A stretch of 64,000 bases of DNA from Nemertoderma westbladi. Taxonomy: Eukaryota > Animalia > Xenacoelomorpha. Position numbers and translations under genes: made by a program. The number at the start of each line of letters is the position of its first letter. Position 1 is the stretch's first letter. The DNA lies in the NCBI GenBank assembly GCA_032718475.1, contig JAUCBJ010007509.1:1-64000 (forward strand), read 5' to 3'. Below are positions 23,428-44,453 of the stretch, piece by piece. The notes beneath the pieces were generated by a model. It was not told where the DNA came from and did no database searches. It saw only the letters and a program-made list of their open reading frames with translations.

Positions 23428-25121
23428 ATGAGTGACAAACAAGACTATACGAAAAATACACAAACCGACTATGACTCATGTGACGGAGATAAGTCAGAAG
23501 CGGAAGAACCACAGGGGAAGACTCGTGAGCCTACCGAACCTACACCGTGCGCGTCACCAGTACATCCAACGGAAGTACCGGATGCCGTAGTACGAGGCGA
23601 CGGCAGGACTGAGGATTTCCTAACGGTCCCGCAACCTAGATACAGGGAAACGGAGATGGTAAGTTCAGTAGGAAGCCAGGAGAGCGTAGTTAGAAGCGTC
23701 GGCGGTTACATGGCGCATATTACCAGGAGTATTGGAGAAGGCCAACGCATATTAGACGAGTTAACCGCTCCGATGTCTCGGTTCGAGTTCTACACTCTAC
23801 AGGTGAGAGTACAGAGTAAAGTATATAAGTCCGTAGATAACCTAATTGGTCTACAAGATCTAGCTAGACAGAGACAGGATATGGACACTCAGCTTAGAAT
23901 CCTCGAGAAACTAATGATCACTAGAGAGAAACTGATTCAGTTTAAGTCGACGATTAGGCAGATACAACAGGAACAAGCGGACCAGTTGTTAGGTGAGTCA
24001 GTTTCGGACGAATTATTGCAACCCGAGGAAGAACAGGAACTGTATAGGCTAGATAGGCAATTGAAACACCTGACGGATCACTTACGCATGTGCGGCGAGG
24101 ACGTCGGAGATTGGGAAACCGTGCCGGAGGCTACGAGGGAAACTTCACTCGCACAAATCGAACTGGCACCGGGAACACTAAATCAATCACTGGTGAGTAT
24201 TCGCAGCGAAATTGGCGAGGTGAGTATGGCTACGTCAGAAATTGCTCGACAACAGCAGCTCTACAGACAACAACAGGAGATGGAGGAACAAACTCAACTG
24301 CTAATGGCACAAGCAGCAGTACAAGAAGAGAAACTACGTGTTGCGAATGTTGCAAGAATCTCTCATCTGCAAGAACAAGCCGAGTTGGAAGCAGCCGAGA
24401 TGGAAAGATTAGAGTTGGACATTGCACAACAAGCGGCAGCGGCAGCGGCCGAGTCAGAGCGACAAGCAGCAACGGCCGAGTTAGAGCGACAGAGGTTAGT
24501 ATCAGAAGCGAGAGCCGAGATGAAAAAATGGCAAATAAAGGCTCAATCAGCTATACGACAAGCGGAGTTTGAGGCGCAACAACAACAGACGGAACAACGC
24601 GAGAAGGAAGTTAAACTTCATTTCGAACTCGGGAAGAAGGCGAGAGAATTAGCCAACGCGAAGGAAGATCTGGATCTACAAGCCCGCGATCGATCGATGA
24701 GATCTCGTGACGGACATGATTTGGACCAGTTAGAGGTAAGGCACCGTCAAATTCAGGAACGAATGAAGGAAGGAAGTGTAGGGGCACCTGGGCGAGAAAG
24801 ACAACTAGTAAAGGACTTATGTCAAAGATTCCCTCGAGTAACTCCTATGTTTGCACCAGTTACGACTAAGAAACCTATTTCGATTACTGGTAGTAGTAAT
24901 ATTTCTCCTATCCATGGTGCGACGGAACACAGGTTTGTTATTCCGGACAAGTTCACACCGCCAAGAGCAACGTCGTCGCCTATTCTGAAAGTCAAGGTAA
25001 GTAACCCACCGATTACAGATCGTAGTAGTTTGTTGACTGGACCTGCACTACTAACGACAAAACAGGTGAGTCCACCTTCGACACCAAAACTCGTTACACA
25101 CTACACGTACCCAATGATGTT
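23428..25121 (+). CDS. BEL/Pao gag, 5' part (interrupted by the Polinton)
   Basis: Long coiled-coil ORF that joins 43250-44453 in frame once the Polinton and one TSD copy are removed. Confidence 0.85.
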
Positions 25122-25446
25122 AGTAGTATGGGATGCTAGCCCCTCCGCACAAAGTGGTAATGATGGGCTACGGGCCCATCATTACCATCCATTTCTGGTA
25201 CTGCAGCCAATCAGAAGCCTCCATTTCAACCTTTTGCAGTGGTCGTTATTATTTCAACCAATCAGATGTCAGCATTTCATCCATAACCATGGTAACTTCT
25301 CAAGTTCCCGCATCTTCCGCTAGAGGCGTTATTAGTCACCCAACGCTAGTACTGCATCCAATCACCAACCTTTATTTTACAGGTGTTCGAGTGTCTACAC
25401 TTAGCATCAGGTAACTTCTATTATTTTTCAAATCGCTATTTTTCAC
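25122..25446 (+). repeat. Polinton left TIR
   Basis: Reverse complement of 42929-43243 apart from a few SNPs and one 18-vs-8-nt replacement; several CCAATC boxes. Confidence 0.95.
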
Positions 25447-26023
25447 CAACCATTCCATATTCATCTTCACATAGCCTAACCTCACGATGCATGGCTAGCC
25501 CCCATCCCATCGCTACTCAATCCACAGCTGTTACCCACCCAACCACCCACCAACCAACCAATCAACAGCGATGTTTGCCTAACCCTACAGTTATTCACCT
25601 TTTCACAACGTTACCACCACTGCCACGTTACCACCACCACTGTATACTGTATATGGTGACGACGTGGCCACCAACTACACGCATCGTGCATATATTATAT
25701 CGATTGCCAAATCCACGACTGCTCTCGCCAAATCAACAAACCAACTAGTATGATACATGAGATTCCGTCACGTTCTAGCTACGCGTATACGAGTATTAGT
25801 GATCATTATTACGCAATAATTTTTTTGTTTATACAGTAGTTCCCTACCAGCTAATCAACCAATCAATAAACCGAATTTAGGCTATTTCTCAGTTTAAGAC
25901 CTGTATTATTTTTGAAAATATCTTATATATATAATCTCTTGCTTTAATCGCAATTAATCATTTGTAATGGTTTTAGTTTAAAAGTTTTTACTTTGTTTGA
26001 TTTACAATAAAATAAATTAAATA

Positions 26024-26470
26024 ATGTCTTCTGATTCCAATATGGTTATGCCAATGGTAAGGCATTCATTTTTTGCAGAAGATGGTCAAGCCTATATTGT
26101 TATTGATTATACAATTTACCGTCAGGGAGATGATAAATATAAAATTGAATTTTCTGAAAAAGCCAGGAAAGTTTTAAGCTCAATTGATATTGATGCTTCT
26201 GATAATAGTATTCATCTTTTAGATTACAACCTGAAAGCTGAGCATGGGGGAGGAAAATTAAGCAACATTTTACTATTATCCATGATAGAGGGATTTATTG
26301 TTATTACACAATACAACGAAGCTGGTGAAAAGTTTGAAATATGGCTAAATCGGCATAGCCCCTACGAAATTATGTCTTTCTTTATTGTAATGATTTCAAA
26401 AGAATCCTTTGTCGAACCTGAAGAATCAGCGGATAATGTTGAATATGTTGATAATATCATTGATTCTTGA
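26024..26470 (+). CDS. Polinton hypothetical protein (148 aa)
   Basis: Clean ATG-started ORF in AT-rich DNA, preceded by TATA-rich sequence; no motif recognised. Confidence 0.65.
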   Translation: MSSDSNMVMPMVRHSFFAEDGQAYIVIDYTIYRQGDDKYKIEFSEKARKVLSSIDIDASDNSIHLLDYNLKAEHGGGKLSNILLLSMIEGFIVITQYNEAGEKFEIWLNRHSPYEIMSFFIVMISKESFVEPEESADNVEYVDNIIDS

Positions 26471-26639
26471 CTTTTCCCTCTATATTATAAATATTTTATG
26501 ATTATATATAAAATTTTGTTGTTTTTAAATAATCGAAAATTGTAGTAGTATTTGTATATACAGTATAACAGTTTTGTTTGTTTGTTGTTGTTGTTGTGTA
26601 TTGTGGTAATTATTTTCAATTTACTTTAAAATTTGGAAA

Positions 26640-27092
26640 ATGGATATTTTAAATGAAAAATGTCCAGTTTGCTATTCTAAGTTATTGCAACAACATCGAG
26701 ATTATTATAAATGTGAAAATAAACATGCAACTTGCGTACAATGTATTGTACAATATTCCAAAATGAATAATTATTGTTCTAAAATTTGTCCTATTTGTCG
26801 CGCATCCATATCTAAGTTTAATATAAAGTTGGCAAGATACCAACCCTATTATTGGAAAGAGCTTCGCAATATAACTTATATTTCTGCGAAAAGTAATGAT
26901 CCTGGAGATTTATTTACAATATTGGAGAATATTTTTTATAGAAACGTAGTACGACGCTGTTGCTACTATATTCCTTATTTTTTTAGCAGCGAACATAAAA
27001 AAATCATTAGCGCGAAATTCTCGGGAAGTGATTTCCAAACCGCCGATGTTACCTATCATTATTTCGCGTATAAAGATGCTCACCATGCTTGA
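26640..27092 (+). CDS. RING-finger (C3HC4) protein, putative E3 ubiquitin ligase
   Basis: CPVC-x12-CENKH-x2-CVQC-x14-CPICR. Confidence 0.8.
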   Translation: MDILNEKCPVCYSKLLQQHRDYYKCENKHATCVQCIVQYSKMNNYCSKICPICRASISKFNIKLARYQPYYWKELRNITYISAKSNDPGDLFTILENIFYRNVVRRCCYYIPYFFSSEHKKIISAKFSGSDFQTADVTYHYFAYKDAHHA

Positions 27093-27311
27093 AATTACAT
27101 CAGTCTATACTATAATTGGAAATAGCACCTTTTGCTGCAGCGAGCGTCACATACTGTAGTTGTGTCATATGTTAATTAAATATACAGTACTCTAATATTA
27201 TTGTAGTTCCAACAATTATTGTTATATACATAGTAATGGTGTTGGTTTATTGATATTGATATTGATATTATATTATATTATATTGTTGATATATCTTAAT
27301 AATAATAATAA

Positions 27312-27992
27312 ATGGCTGACTTTAATTCAGGCCCATATAATTTAAACTTTCAAATGGGTACAAGTATGATAATTTCAGGGCCATCTGGTTCCGGAAAGTC
27401 AACCTTTGTGGGGAATTTAATTAAACACAAGAATGGTTGTTTCAACGAAGCCCCCTTGCGAGTATTGTATTGTTACGGGAGCAATCCCCCGACTATTCCT
27501 GGTATTACTCACCTTTACAAAGGCTTGCCTGAAAATATAGATAGTTTAGTCAATAGTCGAGATTTATTAATTATAGATGATTTGTTAACAGAAACTGAGT
27601 CCAGTACAGCTTTAACTGTATTGTTTACTAAGGTGGCTCATCATTCCAATATATTTATTTGTTTTATAACGCAAAACATGTTTTACGGTGGGAAGCATAA
27701 CCGCACAAGATCAATTAATAGCCATACTTTAGTATTAATGAAAAATCCGAGAGACAGTCTATCGGTTTTAAATTTCGCGAAGCAGATGTTACCAGGGCAG
27801 ACCAAATTTTTAGTTGATTCCTATCAAGATGCGACAATTCAACCATTTTCACATTTCTTAATTGATTTACGACAGGAAACACCCGAACATTTAAGATTTA
27901 GATCTGATATATTTCGTAATCATAATTGTTACATTAAAAATTACACTGACTATAAACGTAGCGAAAATAATAATAATAATAATGATAAATAA
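27312..27992 (+). CDS. DNA-packaging ATPase (FtsK-HerA/A32-like)
   Basis: Walker A GPSGSGKS, Walker B LLIIDD, HHSNIFICFITQN, R-x3-N finger and KNPRD, all typical of Polinton ATPases. Confidence 0.93.
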   Translation: MADFNSGPYNLNFQMGTSMIISGPSGSGKSTFVGNLIKHKNGCFNEAPLRVLYCYGSNPPTIPGITHLYKGLPENIDSLVNSRDLLIIDDLLTETESSTALTVLFTKVAHHSNIFICFITQNMFYGGKHNRTRSINSHTLVLMKNPRDSLSVLNFAKQMLPGQTKFLVDSYQDATIQPFSHFLIDLRQETPEHLRFRSDIFRNHNCYIKNYTDYKRSENNNNNNDK

Positions 27993-28029
27993 TTAATATT
28001 TTGTAACAATTTTCAATAATGTTGCAACA

Positions 28030-29349
28030 ATGAAAAGACTTGTGCAGAAATATCGTAACGAACTGGAATTTCTACGCAGCGCTACCCCTCAACAAAGAAC
28101 TTATTTTATTAACCATACCGCCAGTAACGAATTAATACGGCTCATTGTAAATACTGCATTAAATGTTCTAAAAGGTAATGTACAATTGACCCCTCATTCA
28201 TTTAGAAATATTCGCCGCTATAAGAAGGTATTGAAATCACTCAACCGTAAAACAAAAAATATATCAAGTTACAGAAAAAAGTTAAGTAATCAATTAAGTA
28301 AAGTTAAGTTAAGAATTTATTTAGATCCTTCATCCCCCGCGGGATTTGCAAGTGTTGCAAAATTAGCAAAAGCTGCAAACATCAAACCGGCGCAAGCCCA
28401 GAAATGGTTGAGTGGACAAAAGACATACACCCTTCACGCTCCACGTAGACAACATTATCCAACATCTAAAATATTTACGGGAGGCATAAAAGATATATAT
28501 ATGATAGATCTGGTGGATATGCAGCAATATAAGTCGCAAAATAATAATTATAACTATATATTAACGTGCATTGATGCCTTCAGTCGGCTTGCTTTTGCCT
28601 ATGCTATGAAAACAAAAAAGGGTGTTGAAATTATTAGTATATTGCAAAAAATATTCCAGAAAGGAAAACCAAACAGAATCGCCACGGATCAAGGTTCTGA
28701 GTTTCTAAATAAATCTGTAAGGAAATATTTAGATACGTTAGGTATACAGTATTACGTAATGTATTCTGTGAATAAGGCGGCTATTGTCGAGAGATTCAAC
28801 AGAACCCTAAAAACAAAGATGTTCAAAATTTTCACGCAAAGGGGAAATAATATTTGGATAAAAATTTTACCTAAGCTTATCTCGGCTTATAATAGGTCGT
28901 ATCATAGAACAATACAAATGACACCTATTGAAGTTAATAAATTTAATGAAACTGAATTAATGAATAGATTATATGGGAAATATAGACAGATAAATCACAA
29001 GAAAATAAAATTTAAAGTTGGAGATACAGTACGATTATCTATTGCTCGTACTGCTTTTGCTAAAGGCTATTGAGAACAATGGACACGTGAATTATTTATT
29101 ATTCATCGGGTCAGGTTGGATAGAGTACCAGCGGTAATGTTCGATATTAAGGACAGCACCGGAGCTATAATAAAGGGCTCATTTTATTCTCACGAACTCC
29201 AAAAGGTCCACCCGAATAGTAATATTTATCTAGCAATTGACAAAAAAAATATTGGCAAACTGAAAGAACGTGTACACAATGGGAAGAAAGAATATTTAGT
29301 CCGATTCATCGGATCCAAGAAACAGTCCTGGGTACAGCATATTCAATAA
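28030..29349 (+). CDS. Retroviral-like (rve) integrase with C-terminal chromo-like segment; in-frame TGA at 29071-29073; N-terminally fused to a basic Polinton ORF
   Basis: DDE triad in IDLVDM / TDQGSEF / VERFNRTLK; YNRSYHRTI; FAKGY*EQWT; GSFY..ELQ; YLVRFIG; ORF 29116-29349 is in the same frame. Confidence 0.92.
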
Positions 29350-29598
29350 GCTTAGGTTTATACTGTATATTAATTCATTTTGGTCGCATATGACCGTAAT
29401 TAATCAATAATATTAACTCGAATGATATTACTATATCTATAGTTCATCCGCTTTAAATAAAGCTAGTAAAATATTGATCCCTCGCATATACTGTAGAAGA
29501 TGCTGGCAATGAACGTGGTCACAGATGTCTATAATTTAACATTATACTGTATGTACAAAGGAGTCAAGTAGAGAGAGCGAGCTTAAATAATAATAATA

Positions 29599-30471
29599 AT
29601 GGCCACAGATACATATATCACTCTACTTTCAGATAGCTCATTGAACACTTATCCCAATAATAATCCTAGTGAGTTTACTGTTGATTTAGCCGAAGAATTA
29701 TATATTGGTCCAAACGCTAAAATTGGACTTGCCGAACTTCAATATCAAGCAACATACAGTAATATTACGCTGCAAACTCAAATCTCACTGTCAATCGGGG
29801 TAGATGCAAAAGATGCCAAATTATATAGTTTATTTCCTGGTATGCATAACTCTATTCAAGTGATTATTGATGATATAAATAAACTGTTTAATTCTGAAGC
29901 GAAATATAGAGATTTCGAATTCATTTTTAATACAAATAATTCTAGAATTAAATTTAAATTTCCTAAAAAGTTGAAAAAAATACAATTAAGTCTACGCGGC
30001 GATTTAATACAAATTCTAGGCTTAAAACCGTTATTGGATCGGAATCATCCGGATATTCCAAATTGGGATATATACAGTACCACTACAGTAGATGAATTAA
30101 GCAATATAGAACAGCCGATATTAATTTTAAATTATAGCGGGCCAAAAATTTCGGAAATTGGCATTTTAGATTTTCCAGCTCCCACGAATATAACACGTAA
30201 TAAAGACACTATCTTTATATACACAGATATTATTAAGAGCTCATTTGTTGGCGACGCTTTAGCTCCGCTCTTAAGAACCTGCCCTTTAACGCAATTAAAT
30301 CGAAAATATATTAATCACGAATACGAGAGCATTTGCTATTTCCCATTGTTGAATAAAAAACTAAAAACAATCTTAATTACTTTACGTGACGGCCAAGGCC
30401 AATTAATTAACTTCAGCGGAGGTCGCACTGTTATAACACTTAAGTTAATACGGGGTGGCGGCGATGGATGA
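29599..30471 (+). CDS. Minor capsid protein (penton) 1
   Basis: YITLLSDSS..YPNN..SEFTV.L, IGLAELQY, IFIYTDII...VGD..APLLR, YFPL and I.LRD..G..I.F motifs. Confidence 0.85.
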   Translation: MATDTYITLLSDSSLNTYPNNNPSEFTVDLAEELYIGPNAKIGLAELQYQATYSNITLQTQISLSIGVDAKDAKLYSLFPGMHNSIQVIIDDINKLFNSEAKYRDFEFIFNTNNSRIKFKFPKKLKKIQLSLRGDLIQILGLKPLLDRNHPDIPNWDIYSTTTVDELSNIEQPILILNYSGPKISEIGILDFPAPTNITRNKDTIFIYTDIIKSSFVGDALAPLLRTCPLTQLNRKYINHEYESICYFPLLNKKLKTILITLRDGQGQLINFSGGRTVITLKLIRGGGDG

Positions 30472-31309
30472 GTTCTACGTTAGACTACCGAGTAATTCCT
30501 GTCCAATTGATTTTCCCCGCAATAGCGCTAGTAATTATCAGATAAATTTCCACGGCGCCTTACCTATAAATCCAAACGAAAACTGGGTGGTAGGTATAAA
30601 AAGTATATTTTACTTAGCAACGTTGCCGTCCATGTATAACAATGTAGAGAATGTTATTTTATTAAAAAAAGGGAAAAAAATTTTTGAGGATACACTTCCA
30701 TCTGGTTTATTCTACAGTATCAATGACATTATAGATTATTTTAACACGGGGGCGTTGAAAGATAAATTACAAATAGTTGAAAATACTCAGCAAAATAGAT
30801 TGCAATTTATTTTAGGGAAAACTGTGCGAGAGTTATTTATAGGTCAACAATTAGCCTATTATTTTGGAATTACTGAAAATAATCTCGGTGCGAATTTAAA
30901 TCCAAATTTTAAAATTATTTTGAAGACGAAAAATAATATAAAGGGTTATTTAATAAAGGTTATCGGAAATGGAGAAAAGGCTTACCAGATGGTATTTTTA
31001 TGTCCTCAACCACCCAACTCTATTCCAGAACCTAAGTCGAACATGTACGTGACTACTAATATAATTGAAAATCAATATATTAACGATTTTGGTTTAGCTT
31101 TACTTCGTCGTGTTGCGATACCTGATGATGTGAAATATGGTAGCGTAATAAATAAAGAATTTGTCAAGGATACAATTCATTATATCCCTGTAAAAAAATC
31201 ATATAAGATAACATACATTCATATTGAAATAACAGACAAAGAAGGAAAAGATTTGAATTTTGAATACGGCACAACTTCTATTACATTACACTTTAAACGT
31301 ATAAATTAA
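30464..31309 (+). CDS. Minor capsid protein (penton) 2, diverged paralog
   Basis: FYVRLPSNS...FPRN..SNY, WVVGI, MYVTTNII..Q...D...LLR, YIPV, IEITD..G..L.F..G...ITLHFKR. Confidence 0.85.
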   Translation: MDEFYVRLPSNSCPIDFPRNSASNYQINFHGALPINPNENWVVGIKSIFYLATLPSMYNNVENVILLKKGKKIFEDTLPSGLFYSINDIIDYFNTGALKDKLQIVENTQQNRLQFILGKTVRELFIGQQLAYYFGITENNLGANLNPNFKIILKTKNNIKGYLIKVIGNGEKAYQMVFLCPQPPNSIPEPKSNMYVTTNIIENQYINDFGLALLRRVAIPDDVKYGSVINKEFVKDTIHYIPVKKSYKITYIHIEITDKEGKDLNFEYGTTSITLHFKRIN

Positions 31310-31310
31310 A

Positions 31311-31871
31311 ATGGATTCTGATTTATTTCAAAGATACAGTAAACCTCAATATGGGGGTTCAGACTCTAATCTTGCTGTTTTTAAAGGTGGAAGAAGTACC
31401 AGAGGCTCGACGCAAGTTCCTGTTTTTCGTGGTGGTTCATATATTGACCCTTACGGTCAACAAATTGGCACATTTGGTCCAAACTTAAAACAACGTTGTT
31501 TTCAGCGTTATCGTAGAGGTATGCGGGCAAATCAACACGGAGAAGGTATATTTACAGACGCCTTATCGACATTAAAAAAAATTGGTAAGCCATTAGCTAA
31601 AAAAGTTTTACAGAAAGCTTTACCATTTACCACAAAATTTATGAGACAACACGTAATACCAAAAGGTAAGCGGGTCTTACATCAGCAGGCTAATACAGTT
31701 ATTAATAAAGCATTAAATAAAATGAAACCGTCAACAAGGTCGGTTGTAGAAAAAGTTTATAGAGATTTAAAGCGACCCGCTAGACCAATGTCTATGAACA
31801 TACATCATCGACGTAGTAAAAAGAGAAATATAAAAGGCAAACTGAAACACTGCGAAAAAAGTATTTTTTAA
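31311..31871 (+). CDS. Basic virion core/membrane-active protein with adenain-type cleavage motifs
   Basis: QYGG, FKGG, VFRGG and QHGEG followed by an amphipathic helix (IFTDALSTLKKIGKPLAKKVL); K/R-rich; sits between penton and MCP. Confidence 0.7.
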   Translation: MDSDLFQRYSKPQYGGSDSNLAVFKGGRSTRGSTQVPVFRGGSYIDPYGQQIGTFGPNLKQRCFQRYRRGMRANQHGEGIFTDALSTLKKIGKPLAKKVLQKALPFTTKFMRQHVIPKGKRVLHQQANTVINKALNKMKPSTRSVVEKVYRDLKRPARPMSMNIHHRRSKKRNIKGKLKHCEKSIF

Positions 31872-31873
31872 TA

Positions 31874-32914
31874 ATGTCAATTATTAAGGAATTAGATTTA
31901 TTTTCTACACAGCCAATACAGACTGAATTTAAAGCAAAGCAATATGAAACAATTTACCCTGTATCTAATCTCAGAAGTGAATCTAGGGAGGTCACCTTCC
32001 TTGTACCCAGATCCAATGAATTCTATACGAAACTGCAAGACGCGTTATTAATTACAAAATGTACAGTACGTTGGGATAGACGACTTGAAAACTCCCATAT
32101 TTATATGCTGAATTACCCAGCTGAAACTATGTGGAGTGATATTAAAATAGACCTTAATGAGAAGCAGGTTGAAAATAGCAATAACCATTATTTCTACAAG
32201 TCGTACTTATCCAATTTATTATTTACAACTTACGAGGATAAAAATGGGCTACTGGGTGCGGGTGGCTTTCATCAACCTTTATCTGAACACGGAAATGAAA
32301 TTGATCCCGGCGCGCATCCTATTGCCGATGCCTTTAGTAAACAAATGCAATTTGTAAGTGGATTGACGATTGATTTTGATACTGAAACTAAAATAATACA
32401 ACCTAGGTATGATTTAAGAATGCATTTTAGAAAAGTATCAAATTCGTTTATTTTTCAAATCACTCCAAACGCAAACGCCGTGACAAATCTTCGACTAGAA
32501 TTAGATGAAATAAAAATTCTAATCCCTAGAATGGGGGTTAATCCAGTAATAGAAAGCAGTCACCTAAAAGGTTTAGAGAGCTACGATATTGAATATCAAT
32601 TTCAAAAGAAAGAGGTAACTACATTTACTATTCCAGCTCAAACCACTCAATTAATGAAAAACATTAATACATATATTAACGGTTATGGAGGTAATAATAT
32701 AGACCATGAAACCTACTTAGGTAATTGTCCCATCCTATCCTGGGACCTAACCGCCGATGGCTACGTTAGAGATCCGCAACCCTCGATATATACTAACGGT
32801 CAATTAAAATTAAGATTTGCCGAACCGTTGGTTGAAACCATAAATGTAATCGTTTTTAATATTTATGATCAATCATTAAGTTTAAATAGCAGGAAAGAAA
32901 TACATATCGATTAA
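31874..32914 (+). CDS. Major capsid protein (double jelly-roll, Polinton PY type), apparently internally deleted
   Basis: ELDLFS..PIQT, YP, N....MWSD..I.LN...V...NNHY.YKSY, WDLT.D, L.LRFAEPL...INVIV motifs. Confidence 0.85.
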   Translation: MSIIKELDLFSTQPIQTEFKAKQYETIYPVSNLRSESREVTFLVPRSNEFYTKLQDALLITKCTVRWDRRLENSHIYMLNYPAETMWSDIKIDLNEKQVENSNNHYFYKSYLSNLLFTTYEDKNGLLGAGGFHQPLSEHGNEIDPGAHPIADAFSKQMQFVSGLTIDFDTETKIIQPRYDLRMHFRKVSNSFIFQITPNANAVTNLRLELDEIKILIPRMGVNPVIESSHLKGLESYDIEYQFQKKEVTTFTIPAQTTQLMKNINTYINGYGGNNIDHETYLGNCPILSWDLTADGYVRDPQPSIYTNGQLKLRFAEPLVETINVIVFNIYDQSLSLNSRKEIHID

Positions 32915-32916
32915 GT

Positions 32917-33369
32917 ATGTTATCTACAGAGGACCTTGATATGTTTCCAGTGGGTGGTCACTATTTGGGCGCGTTTCCAGCTAATAAATTACCTAAATTA
33001 GATAATAATAAGCGGCAGGATTATGGCTTGATAGTAAATACTGATAGAGAGCATCTGCCCGGGATTCATTGGATCGCGATATATATACGAGATAATGAAG
33101 CCGAAGTATTTGACTCGTTTGGACCAAAATATCCAAACAGATGCATCGAAAAATGGCTTGAGAAAATTTCCGCAAGGTGGCGTACTACACGCAAACAATT
33201 TCAAGACCCCAGGAGGACCACATGCGGTCTATACTGTCTTTATTATTTGGTAAATCGTATTCACACAATCTATCCAATGAGAGCGTTTACAAATAATGTG
33301 GAAATCAATGAAATTATATTATATAAATGGCTTGTTAATTATTATAAATTAAACCAACAAACTTTGTAA
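32917..33369 (+). CDS. Adenain-like cysteine maturation protease
   Basis: VNTD...PGIHW, FDSFG, Q....TTCGLYC (catalytic H/D/Q/C). Confidence 0.93.
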   Translation: MLSTEDLDMFPVGGHYLGAFPANKLPKLDNNKRQDYGLIVNTDREHLPGIHWIAIYIRDNEAEVFDSFGPKYPNRCIEKWLEKISARWRTTRKQFQDPRRTTCGLYCLYYLVNRIHTIYPMRAFTNNVEINEIILYKWLVNYYKLNQQTL

Positions 33370-33400
33370 TTAATCATTTAACTTTTGTTTATCAGATAAA

Positions 33401-33997
33401 ATGGATAATATTATTTTTGTTGATTTTCAATATTATAAGATAGACAATAAGGAGTATCCTGTAGTATTTAAAGAATTTGCTATTTTCGATTCTAATTACA
33501 CCAAAACTAATGTAAAGACGTTTTTAATTAAAGGCCCGTCTAATATTAAGTTATCAGCTTTAGATGCAGCTCACGTAAACAATTTACGGGATATGACTTC
33601 TCACTTGCCCTGGAACTACGGGGACATTTCTCAAGATGACTTTAAAAAATATATGAAGAGACATTTAAAATATAAAAAAAATATTCATGTATTTGGGTTG
33701 CTGAAACGGGCAATATTAGTTTCCCAACTCGATGTTCACGAGCCAAATTCGGTGGAGAAATTGGGAATATATAAGCAATATCACGATTATTTAACACCTT
33801 GTCGATTTCACGACCGATTCACTACAATGGAAAGTAAATGTGCGTTCCACTTAAACATAAGGGATAACTGTCTGCGATACTGCTCAGCAAAACGTGTTGG
33901 CAGGTATGAGGCTCTACACTTTTTCATGAGAAAGCGTTTAACTGCGACTGATGATGATAAACAGAAAGAAATAACTGCGGTGGAAGATGTACTGTAG
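33401..33997 (+). CDS. Polinton accessory protein, possibly DnaQ/DEDD exonuclease-like fold
   Basis: IFVDFQ...VFKEFAI, LPWNYG and a C-terminal C/H cluster; resembles a recurrent Polinton ORF family. Confidence 0.55.
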   Translation: MDNIIFVDFQYYKIDNKEYPVVFKEFAIFDSNYTKTNVKTFLIKGPSNIKLSALDAAHVNNLRDMTSHLPWNYGDISQDDFKKYMKRHLKYKKNIHVFGLLKRAILVSQLDVHEPNSVEKLGIYKQYHDYLTPCRFHDRFTTMESKCAFHLNIRDNCLRYCSAKRVGRYEALHFFMRKRLTATDDDKQKEITAVEDVL

Positions 33998-34349
33998 GTT
34001 TACTCTAAGCATGTAATGTGATGGGATAATATAATTTTATTTTAGTGATGATCTTGATGTTAATATAAAAAATATAATAAAATATAATTTTTTACAACAA
34101 GTTCTCTAAAAAAGAGTCAATTGCGCTAGGTTAACTATACACATTTAACAATATGATGTAGACGTAACATGTACAGTAAGTATTCTCGATATCATTCTAA
34201 TATAGATGTACTGGTATTGTGAAACAGCCTATACATCGCAAACTAATAACACATACAGTAGTTGACTAGTAATATTAGTCAGAAAATGCAACATAATCTG
34301 TATAGGGTGTAATGATAACCTGTTGGTACCGGTACTGATAAATTATAGG

Positions 34350-35520
34350 CCTATCTACAACTGTCATCCACTTTATCAGTACCGGTAGTGTTTTACTCTT
34401 CCAACACTGTAGTTTCTGTCTAGTGGTATCGGTACAGCAGTAATCTGATGCATGCAGGGGTCTCACATATAGGGATTAGATCACCTATCCAAACAATACA
34501 GTACTGCTGTACTGTCGCTGTTCTTGATGTAACATCATAATCAGATAAAGCATACTGATTTCCTTTGATTAGCATTGTACTGCAGTACCGGTACGACAGT
34601 ACCTGCAGTAACAAACTAAACCAATGTATACAATATCGTGAGCTAGTTACAATCAGATGTGTACGCAGTCAGCCACGTTGCGGGGATGCGGTCAACCTCA
34701 CAGCTAGCCTCGCAGCTCCTATCCACAACTGTCATCCACTTTATCAGTACAGCAGTAATCTGATGCAATAGCATTTGTTTTTTTTCACCTATAAGGATAC
34801 TGCTGTCTACCCGAACCTTGATTAGCATAGGCCTACAGCTGTCATAACCTAGATTACATGCAGGGGTCTCACATATAGGGATTAGATCCCCTACCTAAAC
34901 AATACAGTACTGCAGTACTGTCGTTGTTCTTGATGTAACAGCATAATCAGATAGAGCATACTGATTTCCTTTGATTAGCATTGTACTGCAGTATTAATGT
35001 AACAGTACCTGCAGTAACTGTAGTACAAACTAAACCAATGTATACAATATCGTGAGCTAGTTACAATCAGATGTGTATGCAGTCAGCCACGTTGCGGGGA
35101 TGCGGTCAACCTCACAGCTCCTATCCACAACTGTCATCCACTTTATCAGTACAGCAGTAATCTGATGCAATAGCATTTGTTTTTTTTCACCTATAAGGAT
35201 ACTGCTGTCTACCCGAACCTTGATTAGCATAGGCCTACTGCTGTCATAACCTAGATTACATGCAGGAGTCTCACATATAGGGATTAGATCACCTACCCAA
35301 ACAATACAGTACTGCAGTAGGCCTACTGTCGCTGTTCTTGATGTAACTGCGTTGTCAGATAGAGCATACTGATTTCCTTTGATTAGCATTGTACTGCAGT
35401 ACGGTACCGGTACCACAGTATTAATGTAACAGCACCCGCAGTAACAAACTAAGTCATTGTATACAATATCATGAGCCGGATATAATCAGATGTGTACACA
35501 GTCATGGGATGCGGTCAACC
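34350..35520. repeat. ~404-bp tandem repeat (~2.8 copies) between convergent gene blocks
   Basis: GG(G/A)GTCTCACATATAGGG near 34457, 34863 and 35266; CAACTGTCATCCACTTTATCAG three times. Confidence 0.9.
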
Positions 35521-35725
35521 ACGCAGTCAGAGCAGCATCGCTGCCAGCCTCGCAGCCAGCCTCGCGGCACGCAGCAGCCTCGCAGCCAGCCACCCTCGCA
35601 GCCAGCCTCGCGGCACGCAGCAGCCTCGCAGCCAGCCATGCAGCCAGCCTCATGGCGCGCAGCAGCCTCGCAGTTGATCATGCAGTCAGCCAGCCAGCTA
35701 CGCAGCTAGGCACGCAGTCAGCCCG
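35520..35725. repeat. GC-rich short repeat (GCAGCCTCGCAGCCA-type units)
   Basis: Iterated CAGCCTCGCAGC / GGCACGCAG units. Confidence 0.85.
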
Positions 35726-35811
35726 TGAGAGTCATACTTATTCAAACGAGGTTAGTTTTCCCTAACTACCGATAGATTGATTGAAAAATAATAATGTTTA
35801 ATTTTCACCTT

Positions 35812-36357
35812 CTAATCACCAACACCTAAAGTCACAACACCAAACATTAATAAATAATTAACAAGTTTACTAAATATAGGGTAATAAATGTGAAATTTGC
35901 TAGGTGAACACATTAAAGTACATTTACCAGTATGAAAGCAACAAATGACTACGGTATTATTTATTCTTATTTTGCAATTATTAAAAATTTCAGGTTCATA
36001 TATAACTTGAAGTTGTACATTATCAAAGACAACATAAAACCCGGTATTGTTTATCAATAACCTATAGACTACAGACTTAATACTAAAAATATAAGTACAT
36101 AAATTAACAGATTTTAAAATCAAATTAATACTAGTTTTATCAAATATATGCTTTTTTACTTTTTGGAAATTATACTTACTGCCTAATAATGTAATACGAC
36201 CATTTTTAAATATTAATAATGTGGCACCAAATATCTTATATATAAACTGATTTGGTTTGAGTATGTGTTTACCAGATAATTGATTTTTTAATTCTTTAAA
36301 ATTAATCGCTGACACTTGCTGGCAACTTACATTCTTATTGACTATCTGATAGTTCAT
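35812..36357 (-). CDS. TATA-binding protein (TBP)-like protein
   Basis: 181 aa, the size of the TBP core; YQIVN, INFKEL, ATLLIFKNGRITLLGSK (cf. TTALIFSSGKMVCTGAK), YEPEIF (cf. YEPELF), VICCFHTGKCTL (cf. VLLIFVSGKVVL). Confidence 0.8.
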   Translation of the reverse strand: MNYQIVNKNVSCQQVSAINFKELKNQLSGKHILKPNQFIYKIFGATLLIFKNGRITLLGSKYNFQKVKKHIFDKTSINLILKSVNLCTYIFSIKSVVYRLLINNTGFYVVFDNVQLQVIYEPEIFNNCKIRINNTVVICCFHTGKCTLMCSPSKFHIYYPIFSKLVNYLLMFGVVTLGVGD

Positions 36358-39300
36358 TGTTTGGTTCCCGATAAATAGGTATATTGTTTTTCTTTATCGG
36401 TTTTTTGACCTTTGTTTGATAGTGACCCCAGGGAAGCGAATGATTTTTATTAACCCAATAAAGTTTATCATCAAATGCGCTGAGAGCAAACTTATCACGT
36501 GCTACAGTGTACACTTTGTGTAATTTGCTCTGAAATTGATGTATTTCTTTTGAAATTTCTTCGTTTGAGTTATATGCTCTTACATAATCTTCGTGGCAAA
36601 TATTTTTTTCCACGACAGCTCTTGTAATACCTTTTGCTCTACGAATATTGGATTCATTGAATTCCAAAATTGAATATAATTTTGGTCTTAAAAATACTGC
36701 TTGTTTAATTTCACGTGAGGCTAGTTCGTCTTTACAGTAATAGAGTCTGGATTTATTTTTATCGCTGTAGAGAGGGTGATCCTTGGGGTAATTGGATGTA
36801 TCTAAAATATTATTTTTAATTAAGGCTTTTAAGAAATTACTCTGCGATGTATTATAGTAACAACCTATTAAAGAGTCCGTATCTGATGCTACAATTTCAA
36901 TTCGACAGTTTAATTCTTTCTCAATAGGTAGCAATTTATCATAATACAGCTGATACATATCCAATTTAGCCAAGTCCAAGACAGTACTACCTATATAGAC
37001 CGGCTTATCGAGAGTTACAGAGTCTTTTACTAATAAGTGACCCGATAAGGAATCGTTATAAATCATGAAATTTTCGTGATTTATACGTTTGACTAATTGG
37101 TCACATTTTTCTTTACTATTAGCGATACGAAAGTTGCATCGGTCCCTTATTTTTTCAATCGTTTTTCCAAATAACGAATTATTCAGAAGCTTCGCGACAG
37201 CTGTTTCAATATACGTTTTTGCTATTCTCCTTTGATTAATATTAAAATCTATATAGGGTTTAAATACAAAGTCTTGATGGAAAGAATACAATTTATGGAG
37301 CTTAGTAACAATTAAACCTTGTTTTATATAAAATTTTAACAGTTTTAAATTTACATGATAGAATTCCTTATCGAATTGTGTCAACATAAGTTTTGGTGCA
37401 CACATCTTATAATTGCTATTAGTGCCTCTTTGTTTACAAACATGATTATATTGTTCCCTCATATATGGTGAAAGCATTGTCTCATTTATACTTAAATGTT
37501 CTGGAGCTAAGGGTAGTTCTAATGTACGATCGTGAATATCTTTGGGATATTTCAAATCGCAAATTAAGAAAAACCCAATATCCCCTTCAGTATCAAGATT
37601 TGATAAATATTTTATTAGTTCTTCTGGAGCAGCATTCTCTAAATATGTAACGTTGACTTGTTCAAACCCTGAAACAGGTAGCTTTTTACTTAAATTACCT
37701 GAATACAAGGAATTAAAATCTATATTGAAAATATGACACTCTTCCTTGCTTGGATCATAATTATCAGGATCTGGTATATTTGATTCTATGTAATGCTTTC
37801 GACAGAATGAAACCCCTCCTCTAATAGATGCTTCAAAATCTCTATATGTTTGGTAATCTTTTATTAATGCTAACTTACATTTATTGTATTTCAGGGCGCA
37901 ATCATAAGTGAAAGCTGCGATACTGCAATAATAAACTACTTCTAATTCGTAGTTTTGTCTACATACTCTCCTAAAGTTCTCAAATATATCAGCGAGGAGA
38001 CAAACATCGAGTTTTAAGTATGCTAAAAGATAATCCTTGAGATTCACACAGTCAAACTGACTCCATGATGCGTTGGCAAAACTATATTCCTCGGGAGTAC
38101 AGGTATTTTGTGTTAATTTACTATAAAATTTGTCTATTGATGGTAATTTCGAATCATTGAATTTATTTAAATCTGACAGATACTCGTAGGGAAATATACC
38201 TTTTCGTTTAATTGTTGCATTATTTAAATTTGGATAAAAATGTTTCATTTGCTGTTCAGTAATTGGTAGAACTGATGTTATATCCTCGCTGTCTATATCC
38301 TTTGTTGAACAATCAACTAAAGTACTTAGGGAAAAGGATAAAAATTGATATGTGTCTAAGACACGTAGCTCGATTTTTGTTTTTTGTTCTTTCACTGGTA
38401 TATGCATACTCAGTGAAATATACCTTTCAGAATTTTTAGGGATTACCTTTATATCCCAATCGGAATATTTGTTATTGCTAAACCCAACTTGCAAAAGAAA
38501 ATGCAAATCGTAGAGATTGCAGTTGTGTGCAGCGAGTATATACATGTGTCGTTTCAACGATAAAGAGCGGTTACATGCGTTACAAGCGGCTGCTATATAG
38601 TTACCAGTAATATGTGAGTGATGTTTATTTTTCTCAGACTTATCCTTAAATAAAACATCTACTTCGTTAAGTATAATCTTCTCTCGCGTATGGGTTTCTG
38701 CCCACTTATATAATTGGGTGATGTCATTATATACAGAGTCTAAAAAGTCTTGAATACAGTTGTTGTCGATTGTTTTTGTAAAGGTCTTCAAATAAAATTT
38801 TGGTGGATTGATTAATTCACTACTAGGAACAATTAAATAACTTACAGCGCATGGAATATGATTCTGAATAAATTTACTGTTGGTGGCTGGCTCCAAAATA
38901 GATTCTATGTCAAAATATATTACAAACAATGCTGGTAATGTTCTGTCTAAATTTCTAAAGCTAATGTGAGTTCTTTTTTCAGACGGTAGCTTCTCAACTT
39001 GACTTTTTCCTCGATAACAAGCAAGACGGTGACGTTCTAGAACATTTCTGTAGAAATGCGACAAATACCGTTCGCAATATTTCCTACATCTAATATGCTT
39101 ACCTGTTGTATTCATCAAACGATTCAAGTTAGTTATGCAAACATAATGTGATTGTTTACTCGTATTCTTATTTTTTACAAGTAATATATTCAATAACTCT
39201 TTATCTGGAGTGATTTTACTAAATGGAGCCTGTCTTAATATAGATACTCGATTGTTGTCGTAGAGTAATAAATTAATTATATATGCTGAATTCTGTTTTT

Positions 39301-40309
39301 CAAAAAGTTTAATTGCAAGCTGCCATTCTGTTGGATAATCTTTGTTCCCATTGTCAAAAATAAAATGACTCATATAATTTTTGTACTGCGAAGTACGATA
39401 TTTGTTGTTCTTCACTTTGCTACTAAATTTTGTGGCTATAATTGCCCATTTAAAACAATCATTATCAGCCGTTTGTATATTTATAACACATCGTTTACTC
39501 GATAGAGCCTTAGGTAACTCCATATAACCGTGACCTTTATATTCCAGTGACTTACACTTGGATTCAGCTACTTTAATTTCCACTCTTAATAAAGATTTAA
39601 CGCGCTACCCTGAGCCACGAGTGTTAAATATGGCTATTTTTTGCATTAATTTTTCTAGTACATACTCAAACCATGTGTCAAAACTTTCATGTGAATCTAC
39701 GGTATTAACTGAACCACCTGGAGAACTAAAATAGAAAGTTTCTTCTTGGTCACCCTCTGAAAAATGTGATCGATACATGAGTATATTCACACCTAGCCAG
39801 GGTCTAAGTACATTCATTTCGCTAAGTTTTCCTAATAATAAGTTTTTGATGTGTGGTAGAATATGAACTATGGATGAATGAATATCAGGAAAATCTTCAT
39901 CATTTGGAAGATTATAAACATAGATTTCTAAACGGTTATCGTGTGCGGATCGTTCGATGCTAAAAATTGATGGACCTTGACCAGATTTCAGTCTTTTTCT
40001 AGATGCTACAGTATTGTTTTGGTTCCGTTGTGATGGTCTAACATGATAATAACGTTGGTGGCAGTCGTGACGTAAATAATTCTCATATAAATACTCTTTA
40101 TTACAAGTAGGGCAAGTTTTTTCATACACGTAAAGCTTCATTTCTTTACATCCCGTAGTTGTTTCATGTCGTTTGCATATTTCTTCACGTGAACATTTCA
40201 CATGACAATTAAAACAATTGTATTCTTCAAAATGAGATTTCACGTGTGTTAAATAATTTCGTTTAGAAATTTGAAGAGGACAAAATGGACATTTCAATTG
40301 TTTATCCAT
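36335..40309 (-). CDS. Protein-primed family B DNA polymerase with N-terminal zinc fingers; one in-frame TAG at 39605-39607
   Basis: Exo I YFDIES, Exo II HN..YD.HF, Exo III YLKLDV; RGG, DFNSLY, KLLNNSLFGK, SDTDS, RPKLY, KG; degenerate EndoVII-like HSHITG..AAC.ACN; the upstream ORF joins in frame as GSG*RVK (GSGW motif). Confidence 0.95.
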
Positions 40310-40863
40310 CTCTTTATTATCCTAAAAACAATTTAAAATTAATATGAATATTGTTATATATATAATCAAAAAAAATTCATAAGCTACTCAACACAAATAA
40401 AATATAATATCTAAACTTTAATTAATTTAATATTTTCAGAATGAGCTCGATTGAATCAGTTGAGCTCTTTATATATATATATATTTCAAGTTTCTACTTA
40501 TACCAACCAATCATAAATAACAGTTACATTGGAAACTAATATCATAAATGAAGTTGCTTTTACAACTGAATTCTTTATAATAAAATCAAGTCTAAACCAA
40601 GATGTGCATAATGCGTTTTTAATTTTCATTGATAAAGTAGGTTTTACATGCTAATGTTTTATTATGGTGGTGTAAACTCATGCATTTACATGGGAATGTT
40701 TTATACCTAATCCCATGCTCACATTAAATATAAACTATCACCAATATTTACTCAATAAAGTCACCTTTACATGCAAATACTTTATAATAATCACGCTTTG
40801 TGATAAAAAGTTACCTTTACAAGTTAGTGTGAAACTGAAAAAAAGTCTCTAGTTAATAATAAA

Positions 40864-41907
40864 TCAATCTGATACTGTTTTTATATGTTCCTTATTGTAA
40901 TCTGCTACCTCTTCACTTGCTTTTGTAACTTTTATTTTCTTTGTAGGTATAGAATCATTGTTGGGAATGGAAGATGTTTGAGATGTAGATCTGCGCTTTC
41001 TATCACTCGAGGTCTCTTCGATGTATGTCTTTGGATTAAATGTGGATGAAACTACTTCTGGAAATGACTTATTAACCTTAAACTTCCAAGTTGGTGGATA
41101 TAGAATCGCGAAACCGTCTGTTATATCAGTTGATGAAACATTTAACATCATATCGTAGAGAAACTCTATATATGGTATGTCTTTATCGTAATGTAACTGT
41201 AAATATTTGCTTTCCTTGTCTGTAATAATTACTTTTTTTTCTTGTACATTTATTTTTACTTTAAGTCGGTCAGATAAAGCTTTATCGTCCGTATCTAGCT
41301 CTGAAAAGACACCTTCGTTACTAATTTCATAATTCCATTCATACCACAATGAATTTACTTCCGATGCTGTTAAGTTAAACCCATTATAATACCTAAGACC
41401 AATAGCATCAGAATATCTAGCTGAAATCTCCCATAGTCCCATATAAGTCGCTCCTTTATATTTGCTTACAAAACCAACAAAAGATGGGTTGGTTAAATTA
41501 ACAACAGAACACTGATTTATTATTTCGAGTGGTGGTGATAACAATTCTAATATTTCTGTCTTACTCTGAAGCAATAAATTAATGAGTGATTTGTTTAGAA
41601 TTTGACATTTGCCTTGCTTCTGAATATATACGTTTTCAGTAATAACACAGGTGGAAATATTTAACTTTCCTCTTGCAAATTCTATATTAGGATAAATATT
41701 ACCTCTTGAAACTGGTGATTCCTTTTGTCGGTTGATTAATATTTCTAAGACGTCTAGAAGGTAGAGTGTATCCTGGTAAGAGAAGCACGTTGTTACATTG
41801 CTATCGCTTGAGAGTAATATAAGGTACTTGCCATAAACAATACTACAGGTATATTTATTAAATGTAAATTTCCAAGTATTGCTTGAAGTTTTTTTAAATA
41901 AATCCAT
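40864..41907 (-). CDS. Polinton protein (347 aa) with a PC4-like segment
   Basis: FVSKYKGATYMGLWE-x13-GFNLTASEVNSL resembles the PC4 pattern V..FKG....DIRE....KGISL..EQW..L; basic S/T-rich C-terminus with KRR/KKIK (NLS-like). Confidence 0.55.
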   Translation of the reverse strand: MDLFKKTSSNTWKFTFNKYTCSIVYGKYLILLSSDSNVTTCFSYQDTLYLLDVLEILINRQKESPVSRGNIYPNIEFARGKLNISTCVITENVYIQKQGKCQILNKSLINLLLQSKTEILELLSPPLEIINQCSVVNLTNPSFVGFVSKYKGATYMGLWEISARYSDAIGLRYYNGFNLTASEVNSLWYEWNYEISNEGVFSELDTDDKALSDRLKVKINVQEKKVIITDKESKYLQLHYDKDIPYIEFLYDMMLNVSSTDITDGFAILYPPTWKFKVNKSFPEVVSSTFNPKTYIEETSSDRKRRSTSQTSSIPNNDSIPTKKIKVTKASEEVADYNKEHIKTVSD

Positions 41908-42421
41908 AATTAGAATGAAAACTATTTTGAAAAATAAAAACTAAATAAATGATTATTAGAATGTAAAACTTCGGTTTATATGCTTGCTTTAATAAAACAG
42001 AGTGACTTACAGTGAGGAATATAGTTGCTTCGTGTAACAGATGCAACGTGTACAGCTAAATTTATTACATTAGCGTGAGTTAGAGAGTGAAATAGCAGTA
42101 ACGTGTAACAGATGCAACGTGATCAATGCTAGCCCTGTCATTCTAACTTATATTCAACTTAGTTGATCGACCAGTTACATCGATAAAAGAAATCGATTAT
42201 TATTAATAGTCGAATTAATGTATTCTACGCTATAGTAATTATGTTAAGGAACTAGAAGCTATTTATAAACATCTGCTACCTGTGATGAAGATGAAGAATT
42301 CAATGACTATGGTATAACTCAGATATTTATCGCCTTTTTCTCTCGAGGTTGGATGGAAGAGTGATTGGTGAGTTGTGAGGAGTTATATCGGTCCCGGGTT
42401 CGAACCCTGTTGAATATTTTG

Positions 42422-43049
42422 TTATCTGAAAAATTGCAAAATTAAATTTAGTTACTAGTGAAAAATAGCGATTTGAAAAATAATAGAAGTTACCTGATGC
42501 TAAGTGTAGACACCCGAACACCTGTAAAATAAAGGTTGGTGATTGGATGCAGTACTAGCGTTGGGTGACTAATAACGCTTATCTGAAAAATTGCAAAATT
42601 AAATTTAGTTACTAGTGAAAAATAGCGATTTGAAAAATAATAGAAGTTACCTGATGCTAAGTGTAGACACTCGAACACCTGTAAAATAAAGGTTGGTGAT
42701 TGGAGGCAGTACTAGCGTTGGGTGACTAATAACGCTTATCTGAAAAATTGCAAAATTAAATTTAGTTACTAGTGAAAAATAGCGATTTGAAAAATAATAG
42801 AAGTTACCTGATGCTAAGTGTAGACACTCGAACACCTGTAAAATAAAGGTTGGTGATTGGATGCAGTACTAGCGTTGGGTGACTAATAACGCTTATCTGA
42901 AAAATTGCAAAATTAAATTTAGTTACTAGTGAAAAATAGCGATTTGAAAAATAATAGAAGTTACCTGATGCTAAGTGTAGACACTCGAACACCTGTAAAA
43001 TAAAGGTTGGTGATTGGATGCAGTACTAGCGTTGGGTGACTAATAACGC
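42422..43049. repeat. 157-bp tandem repeat x4 overlapping the inner right TIR
   Basis: Units start at 42422, 42579, 42736 and 42893; near-identical. Confidence 0.97.
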
Positions 43050-43243
43050 CTCTAGCGGAAGATGCGGGAACTTGAGAAGTTACCATGGTTACGGATGAAA
43101 TGCTGACATCTGATTGGTTGAAATAATAACGACCACTGCAAAAGGTTGAAATGGTGGCTTCTGATTGGCTGCAGTACCAGAAATGGATGGTAATGATGGG
43201 CTACGGGTGACTTTGTGCGGAGGGGCTAGCATCCTATACTACT
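42929..43243 (-). repeat. Polinton right TIR
   Basis: Ends ...ATACTACT; inverted match to 25122-25446. Confidence 0.95.
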
Positions 43244-43249
43244 GACGTT

Positions 43250-44453
43250 TCGACCTATAAGGCCAGCTGATTCAAATGCTGTCATTCGACCACCGGTTCA
43301 GTTTACATCGCAATCTACGACTTCGAGGAAGACTTGTGAGCCTACCGAACAACGGAGACCAGTGGATACGCGACAGTTCAACCAGTTTACATCGCAATCT
43401 ACGACTTCGAGGAAGACTTGTGAGCCTACCGAACAATGGAGATCAGTGGACGATGTTCCGAAACGAAACGTTAGAATTTGTATGACGCAACGGACGCGAG
43501 CACGTCGACCACCATATCCAGATGATAGTAGTACTTCGAGCGAATCGGATTACCCGAAACGCGAGGTATTTAGAACAGGGGCGGCCGATGAATATAAACG
43601 CGAGCGTTCAGACAACTCCTTTGTAGACAATCCTCCACAGAATACACCAACACAGAAGGCGTTACAACCAACGGACGCAATCAGTACACAACAGTTCGCC
43701 GACATCCTGCGACCAGTTGTTAACAAGTTGGCTCAGATCGAGGAACGCTTGCAGGAAGTTCACACCAACAGTTCGAGAAATTCCGAATTCGAACACAATA
43801 GAAACCCAAAGGTTCCGCAAAGACAAATACCATCGACCAATACTTCATATCAGGGAAAAGCGCCAAGAAGGGACATCAACCAGATTACCAACCAAGGACG
43901 CGAAACTCTGAACGTTGCCGAGGAAATAGCGAAATTCGCAGCTAGACAAGGACTACCGGTGCAACAACCACCTAAGTTTTCCGGTAGCTCAAAACACTGG
44001 CACACTTTCATAGACTATATCGAATCTCAGATCGCCGTGTGCGCCTTTACATCACGGGAGAAGTTTAATTACCTGCTTCAAACGTTGTCGGGAGAACCTA
44101 AACGTTTGGCGGAGACCTTCGTTGGTGTACCGGACGCCTTCGAACTAGCGTACGATCGTTTAACTTCGATCTACAGAGGTACAGTCAGCATGGCCAGGTC
44201 AGTGATAGAGGAACTCTGTAAGGGAGGGGCTATTACTAAACCCGTCGACTTATTGAAACTGGCTGACGAAATAAAGAACGCTATCACTACTTTGAGATCC
44301 ATTGGACAACTTGACTACGGGAATACCCCTACAGTCCTATTAAAGATCATAGGACGACTCCACCATCGACTTCGTCGGGAGTGGAGGAAGATCGAATACC
44401 AGCGGGAAGAGCGGGGTGGATTCTTAAAACTGGAAGATGTGTACAACAAGTAA
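43250..44453 (+). CDS. BEL/Pao gag, 3' part (DUF1759-like), truncated
   Basis: LP..QPPKFSG...W.TF, EKFNYLLQTLSGEP, AY.RL...Y motifs; in-frame 84-nt duplication at 43299/43383; no pol follows. Confidence 0.88.

Follow-up and report, generated by a model that had tools for sequence, protein, structure and literature searches.

The 64,000-nt window of Nemertoderma westbladi DNA that we analyzed contains a Maverick/Polinton element which encodes its own homolog of the TATA-binding protein (TBP), and this gene is a real, selected and lineage-specific Maverick TBP. The element, delimited by its terminal inverted repeats (TIRs), end motifs and flanks, is a Polinton/Maverick: it has a protein-primed polB together with a retroviral-type integrase, TIRs, a 6-bp target-site duplication and a size in the range of 15-20 kb. 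The TIR arms 25174-25446 and 42929-43201 are 99% complementary. The element was inserted in a BEL/Pao-type gag (23428-25121 and 43244-44453), of which the ORF resumes at 43482 (DUF1759). Its features are listed below by position and strand, where a dot stands for features without strand.

25116..25121 (.): left target-site duplication, a 5/6 match to 43244-43249 (flanks GATGTT/GACGTT, 6 bp, one mismatch)
25122..43243 (.): Maverick/Polinton element, 18,122 bp, AGTAGT termini
25122..25446 (.): left TIR
26024..26470 (+): 148-aa ORF, family not found in Pfam
26640..27092 (+): RING-finger-like protein, under the Pfam cut-offs
27312..27992 (+): packaging ATPase with P-loop; weak match to Pox_A32 (E 0.002); 21 homologs in related loci
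28030..29349 (+): retroviral-type integrase (INT; rve, E 3e-12), interrupted by a stop codon (29071-29073); the C-terminal part, 29137-29349, is still in frame
29599..31309 (+): two ORFs resembling minor-capsid (penton) proteins, each with 10 homologs in related loci, no Pfam match; presumably minor capsid, from Polinton gene order
31311..31871 (+): basic 186-aa ORF, likely a core protein
31874..32914 (+): major-capsid-like ORF, 10 homologs in related loci, no named match; taken by us to be the major capsid (MCP) from Polinton gene order
32917..33369 (+): adenain-type cysteine protease (PRO), Peptidase_C5 above cut-off
33401..33997 (+): 198-aa ORF, family not found in Pfam
34451..35691 (.): 402-bp tandem repeat (2.3 copies) and GC-rich minisatellite, between the converging arms
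35812..36357 (-): TBP homolog, 181 aa, intact; F50, F125 and F141 retained, first stirrup short (KPNQ), second stirrup YEPEIF retained
36335..39523 (-): protein-primed polB, 1062 aa; 88 homologs at E<=1e-20 among 6389 candidates, several with PF03175
39605..40309 (-): N-terminal part of polB, zinc-finger-like, in frame, severed by a stop at 39605-39607; longer polB homologs exist
40864..41907 (-): 347-aa ORF, family not found in Pfam
42422..43243 (.): right TIR, its inner 157 bp present as four tandem copies (42422-43049, 99%)

The TBP gene is an uninterrupted ORF of 181 amino acids from ATG to stop, located on the minus strand like polB and overlapping the polB end by 23 nt. An initial annotation of this DNA had placed it in this way between the TIRs, and the coordinates and TIR arms agree; the peptides quoted there are found in the translation, and the ORF is indeed without an intron and without an N-terminal tail. 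The same annotation read the protein as a TBP homolog with both halves of the saddle, and this reading is borne out by Pfam and by structure prediction. The whole protein matches PF00352 in two stretches with 36.1 bits (cut-off 22.9; E 5.7e-9), and each half matches Pfam TBP separately (E 4.5e-4 and 2.4e-4). From the single sequence, AlphaFold reached a pLDDT of 41.9 only; prediction from an alignment of 123 rows has a pLDDT of 81.8 and gives a TBP saddle over the whole core. The best 39 rows listed by Foldseek against PDB are all TBP-containing entries (39/39), and in the VIA comparison the model reaches Z 13.8 (rmsd 4.0, 170 residues aligned) against Z 7.1 for the best non-TBP structure. The best named viral fold matches are giant-virus TBPs. 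The ORF at 35812-36357 is a real TBP-family (PF00352) gene, and its product is strongly basic (21 K+R vs 6 D+E). As a single query the protein finds no relatives, neither in a word-indexed protein search (0 of 41 candidates) nor among 1.84 billion representatives (0), PDB sequences, viral contigs and metagenome contigs.

Judging from its variants, the gene is maintained and selected. A sister subfamily differs from it in 50 of 293 bases, with no gaps. Among the 40 variant rows listed (30 more rows lie beyond these), 39 are inside the ORF; 26 of the 39 fall on the third base of a codon (p 2e-5), 21 are synonymous when each is taken singly (19% expected), and none creates a stop. The same copy is otherwise decaying: polB and the integrase are split by stops and the capsid gene is apparently deleted in part, yet the TBP frame is whole. 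The apparent internal deletion in the major-capsid-like ORF lies near 32646, where a contig has ~218 extra bases. In contigs from four sequencing runs, each from a different study, 28-30 of the 30 bins of the element are represented, and the two deepest runs contain thousands of element pieces of graded identity, as expected of a multi-copy family, depth not being copy number. In run X5, labelled as a different organism, pieces are found in 28/30 bins over 25832-40784, the longest being ~97-98% identical; a close relative, a mislabel or horizontal transfer are possible sources.

To look at the relatives, 108 loci, many of them fragments, were fetched by polB similarity, and TBP is present in two of them, L031 and L038, whose polB relatives match PF03175. 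Named polB matches come from insects, a spider and a brittle star. In L038 the TBP gene is ~1 kb downstream of polB; in L031 it stands directly before the ATPase and integrase, 5.5 kb from polB. Of the other loci, 15 have matches to ATPase, INT and MCP, and none of these 15 has a TBP match, which indicates that the TBP gene marks one Maverick lineage and that Mavericks manage without it. As for the other genes, L031 also encodes KilA-N and a parvovirus-type PLA2. L038 has two short ORFs between polB and TBP (4454-5492) with no Pfam match, which to the eye resemble PC4/whirly proteins. The 347-aa ORF of the window element was considered as a PC4-like partner, and no similarity was found.

A search of 1183 candidates with a profile made from three TBPs (window, L031 and L038) yielded 360 proteins at E<=0.001; the 120 best of them are short, and PF00352 is matched in 119 of the 120. 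Ten family clusters were checked and the sole name was an automatic 'TBP' label. The family as a whole may be Maverick-borne, the genomic context having been seen for 2 of 122 relatives. The window protein scores 50.8 bits on a profile of the family from which it was itself left out, compared with 16.6 on an archaeal profile and at most 6.8 for 500 shuffles; its identity to any relative is at most 25-26%. Trees with archaeal and eukaryote-type TBPs, none of them an animal TBP, TRF2 or TRF3, nest the window protein in this short divergent family (99/96; 100/100), apart from the archaeal and the three eukaryote-type TBPs, and grouping with the latter is rejected (p-AU 0.002). The 123-row tree is a quick tree and the second tree kept 33 of 48 rows (L113 and 14 further rows left out). 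The window protein's branch is very long (3.4-3.8), and the program warns of long-branch attraction.

In viral contigs, two TBP scans matched one stretch each and no locus, and polB alone had no match. A motif scan of them gave 14 loci, 5 of them with TBP; Maverick genes were found in 0 of these 14. Separately, Pfam TBP was found in 0 of 6 whole records searched. L113 and L122 are viral proteins of 566 aa in which an N-terminal TBP domain is followed by a long C-terminal extension.

Analysis of the saddle residues changes one part of the initial annotation, which had claimed candidates for all four DNA-intercalating Phe. Three match (F50, F125 and F141), and the fourth, F38 in KPNQF, probably does not, so that three Phe rather than four are probably kept. 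F38 stands 12 residues ahead of F50, where the corresponding spacing is 17 in 96/96 archaeal repeats measured and 16 in repeat 2 of the window protein. The F38 column is Leu in 114/122 family rows, the predicted structure puts F38 inside the strand 37-42, and by register the first intercalating position in the window protein is Lys/Pro. The earlier register is favoured by the HMMER alignment to the archaeal profile, which matches F38 to the first Phe but has to delete five residues to do so. Across the family F50, F125 and F141 are conserved in 120, 121 and 117 of 122 rows. Sixteen residues ahead of the second Phe, repeat 2 has Phe in 116/122 rows and repeat 1 has Lys or Arg in 107/122.

The two stirrups differ in the same way. 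The second, [YF]EPExF, is found in 116/122 family members; the first is shortened family-wide to [KR]Px[QM] (111/122), and two canonical stirrups are found in 0/122. In the window protein the first central Asn (N7) and the basic residues K41/R131 are retained, the second central Asn is replaced by Ser, and six near-invariant family columns are departed from, with loss of the family-invariant Pro-Ala and Gly. In TBP the binding site of TFIIA is close to the first stirrup, and the 5' end of the TATA box is held by the C-terminal Phe pair. By their offset from Phe, E121 and E123 of the second stirrup are the counterparts of A. thaliana E144/E146, and the C-terminal stirrup glutamates are described as the main TFIIB contacts of TBP (PMC10005294). 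If the TFIIA and Phe-pair geometry holds here, TFIIB recruitment and recognition of the 5' half would be retained, and the 3' half and the TFIIA side would be rebuilt.

Candidate promoter sites in the element are the following.

25644..34260 (+): ATAC[A/T]GTA, 14 sense copies, 9 of them intergenic, in the virion/integrase arm; candidate element-specific site
25926..25962 (+): TATA box and TCATT, upstream of the 148-aa ORF
33343..33378 (+): TATA box and TCATT, upstream of the 198-aa ORF
40440..40477 (-): TATA box and TCATT initiator-like site, upstream of polB
41948..41980 (-): TATA box and TCATT, upstream of the 347-aa ORF

The host-type combination of TATA and TCAKT (TCATT ~30 nt downstream) stands before 4 of 13 genes and before none of the virion genes; 0 of 2000 shuffles reach four, for a pattern that was picked after inspection of the sequence. 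Canonical TATA words are enriched upstream of the element genes (20 seen, 6.3 expected), and ordinary TATA words are found 45 nt before MCP and ~80 nt before INT. TATT words (9 seen, 8.4 expected) and TAAG words are not enriched in these regions, and in the seven upstream regions of the virion module no shared word at a fixed position did better than random sites. At 40548-40788, upstream of the TATA box of polB, a motif of 20-34 bp built around CATGTAAA occurs three times with spacing between the copies, possibly as a host-factor enhancer.

The most over-represented word in the element is ATACAGTA, which also recurs in the central 402-bp repeat. ATACWGTA has 14 sense copies in the virion arm, where 300 shuffles give 3 at most, with 6 on the other strand, 1 in the polB/TBP arm and 0.12 per kb in the host flanks. 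Nine of the 14 are intergenic although non-coding DNA makes up 18% (p 1.6e-4). Their distance to gene starts is not fixed, and none lies within 200 nt of INT, mCP2, core, MCP or PRO. The shorter TACWGTA occurs at 1.36 per kb in the element, at no more than 0.48 in 43 other loci and at 0.52 in the host flanks; equally over-represented words are found in loci without a TBP match, the window ranking 4th of 44.

In L031 (11153-18662) the word CATAAAC stands before 8 of 13 genes (shuffle maximum 3), and all 12 of its copies lie on the coding strand, none on the opposite one; 3 of the 8 sites overlap a stop codon. Two other genes of L031 have TATA with the initiator. Among the top upstream words of the ten strongest loci (of 41 analyzed), CATAAAC alone begins with a base other than A or T; it occurs once in the window element. 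The genes with TATA and initiator on one side, and ATACWGTA (window) and CATAAAC (L031) on the other, suggest two promoter classes in these two elements, whose link to TBP is hypothetical.

Our working explanation, which we hold at slightly less than even confidence, is that the element TBP is a late-promoter factor, with predicted DNA binding, that would switch on the virion and integration genes as the TBP-like proteins of herpesviruses do. Host TFIID would first start polB and the other genes with TATA and initiator, and TBP would be made with this early arm. The element TBP would then bind a TATA variant, possibly TATAC[A/T]GT, for which host TBP has little affinity, through its intact C-terminal half and remodelled N-terminal half. 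Since the element is without a polymerase of its own, the E121/E123 stirrup would recruit host TFIIB and hence Pol II. The genes for capsid, ATPase, protease and integrase would then be expressed in a late wave, comparable to that driven by herpesvirus TBP-like proteins at TATT promoters. The retained TFIIB stirrup and the two suggested promoter classes would agree with a redirection of host initiation to the element promoters, one of the possibilities raised in the initial annotation. EBV BcRF1 binds TATA and TATT alike in vitro (PMC4893493), and specificity may therefore need partners. In the element no herpesvirus-type pre-initiation partners were identified, three of its ORFs being without a Pfam family.

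One possible option besides a late factor, which we regard as unlikely, is that the element TBP replaces or adds to host TBP at all element promoters with no separate late motif, for example in germ cells, if these have little host TBP or use a paralog in its place. This would fit the retained three Phe, N7 and TFIIB stirrup, the ability of three-Phe TBPs to bind TATA-like DNA (PMC5825884), the enrichment of canonical TATA words and the lack of a virion motif at fixed position. However, the family-wide loss of the first stirrup tip together with the concave-face changes points to altered DNA specificity, and L031 has a non-canonical, strand-biased word.

Another hypothesis, which also seems improbable to us though worth weighing, is that the protein is a decoy or modulator of the host, which binds TFIIB-family factors or other TBP partners via the kept stirrup and so damps or redirects host transcription. 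The EPE stirrup is kept in 116/122 members while DNA-face residues vary, and the window copy has lost Pro-Ala and Gly that are invariant in the family; yet the three intercalating Phe, N7, K41/R131 and the strongly basic character suit DNA binding, and the L031 motif would be left unexplained.

A role in protein-primed replication, with binding of terminal, repeat or single-stranded DNA instead of promoters, is in our view distinctly unlikely. The overlap of the gene with polB in the window, its position ~1 kb downstream of polB in L038, the recurrence of ATACAGTA in the 402-bp repeat and the binding of single-stranded DNA by Giardia TBP, in which three Phe are missing (PMC12209930), speak in its favour, but in L031 the gene is before the ATPase and far from polB, a replication protein would not need to retain the TFIIB stirrup, and just one Phe is lost. 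Finally, a recent host retrocopy or neutral passenger, for which the intronless ORF, the polB overlap, the low identity to relatives and the empty single-sequence searches could be quoted, is very improbable given the synonymous bias without stops among the listed variants, the family-profile score far above the archaeal and shuffled ones, and the grouping with the family and not with the three eukaryote-type TBPs, in trees where host TBP was not among the rows.

The late-factor explanation can be compared with known systems. Cellular and archaeal TBPs (PF00352; PDB 1mp9, 1cdw, 1ytb, 2z8u) have in common with the window protein the two-repeat saddle (Z 12-14 over ~165 residues), the second stirrup YEPExF and three of the four Phe. 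The window protein differs in its ~19% identity to them, in a short first stirrup without its Phe and in the change of the second central Asn to Ser; unlike cellular TBP it has no N-terminal tail and is encoded by a mobile element. TRF2/TBPL1, which is absent from our trees and is a cellular gene unlike the window TBP, loses more Phe. It is a paralog of TBP in which intercalating Phe have been lost and promoter use has changed (PMC10005294).

Among viruses, beta- and gammaherpesviruses likewise have no RNA polymerase of their own and bring a TBP-fold protein, which makes them our working analogy. EBV BcRF1, MHV-68 ORF24 and HCMV UL87 are TBP-like late factors that act with a multi-protein viral pre-initiation complex at a TATT box (PMC4893493). 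In contrast, the window TBP is a bare 181-aa core, is closer in sequence to cellular TBP and is not a member of that group. The TBPs of Nucleocytoviricota and mirusviruses (ASFV B263R, HaV01, Terrestrivirus) are divergent viral TBP cores too and give the best viral fold matches, and ASFV B263R also retains three Phe (PMC5825884); their genomes, however, are far larger and mostly have their own RNA polymerase. Three eukaryote-type TBPs from viral contigs that were tested are outside the window protein's family.

The closest published case is found in Starrett et al. 2021 (PMC8502044, Fig. 5 legend; preprint 10.1101/697771, legends of Figs 5-6), where a TBP label is given in MELD viruses with an adintovirus-like PolB. 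As in the window, this would be a TBP-like gene in a midsize Polinton-related element; there, TBP is a legend label only, and in the section concerned, which is mainly on non-animal hosts, it comes with no residue, family or promoter analysis. Within the full-text literature (subscription journals, Repbase and some supplements being outside this scope), a TBP tied to a Polinton-like element was found only in that paper and its preprint, and TBP or TATA terms are absent from the main text of the Polinton papers PMC11161782, 10.64898/2026.06.19.733378, PMC10748475 and PMC8097293. In the literature searched, the TBP gene is already known as a label given once in print, and its structure-level redesign and promoter logic appear to be unstudied.

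Virions of animal Mavericks have been hard to observe (PMC8097293). A captured TBP with a family-wide redesign offers a one-protein handle on the timing and activation of virion genes in Polintons. It would also supply naturally occurring TBP variants whose DNA specificity is altered, and would be a third route of viral TBP adoption besides those of giant viruses and herpesviruses. A further step, possible but in our opinion somewhat unlikely as a whole, is that one Maverick lineage carries a self-encoded early-to-late switch, made of a minimal TBP with redesigned first stirrup, an element-specific TATA variant (CATAAAC in L031, TATAC[A/T]GT here) and host TFIIB and Pol II. If true, no viral system of promoter specificity known so far would be smaller, and protein and motif would have diverged in step from one family to the next.

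Several minor observations concern the element and its surroundings. The left TIR contains a perfect 14-bp hairpin (25155-25187) that is absent in the right TIR (43190-43210) and resembles a local inversion-duplication close to the terminus. The 402-bp repeat is rich in short palindromes, and the length of 34451-35691 varies among copies. At the left border, a 631-aa ORF from 23428 extends into the TIR. The flanks contain reverse-transcriptase genes, a CACTA-like transposase remnant and an inverted minisatellite pair (4438-5850, 8422-8790, 17170-18933, 58129-58644 and 54137-56265).
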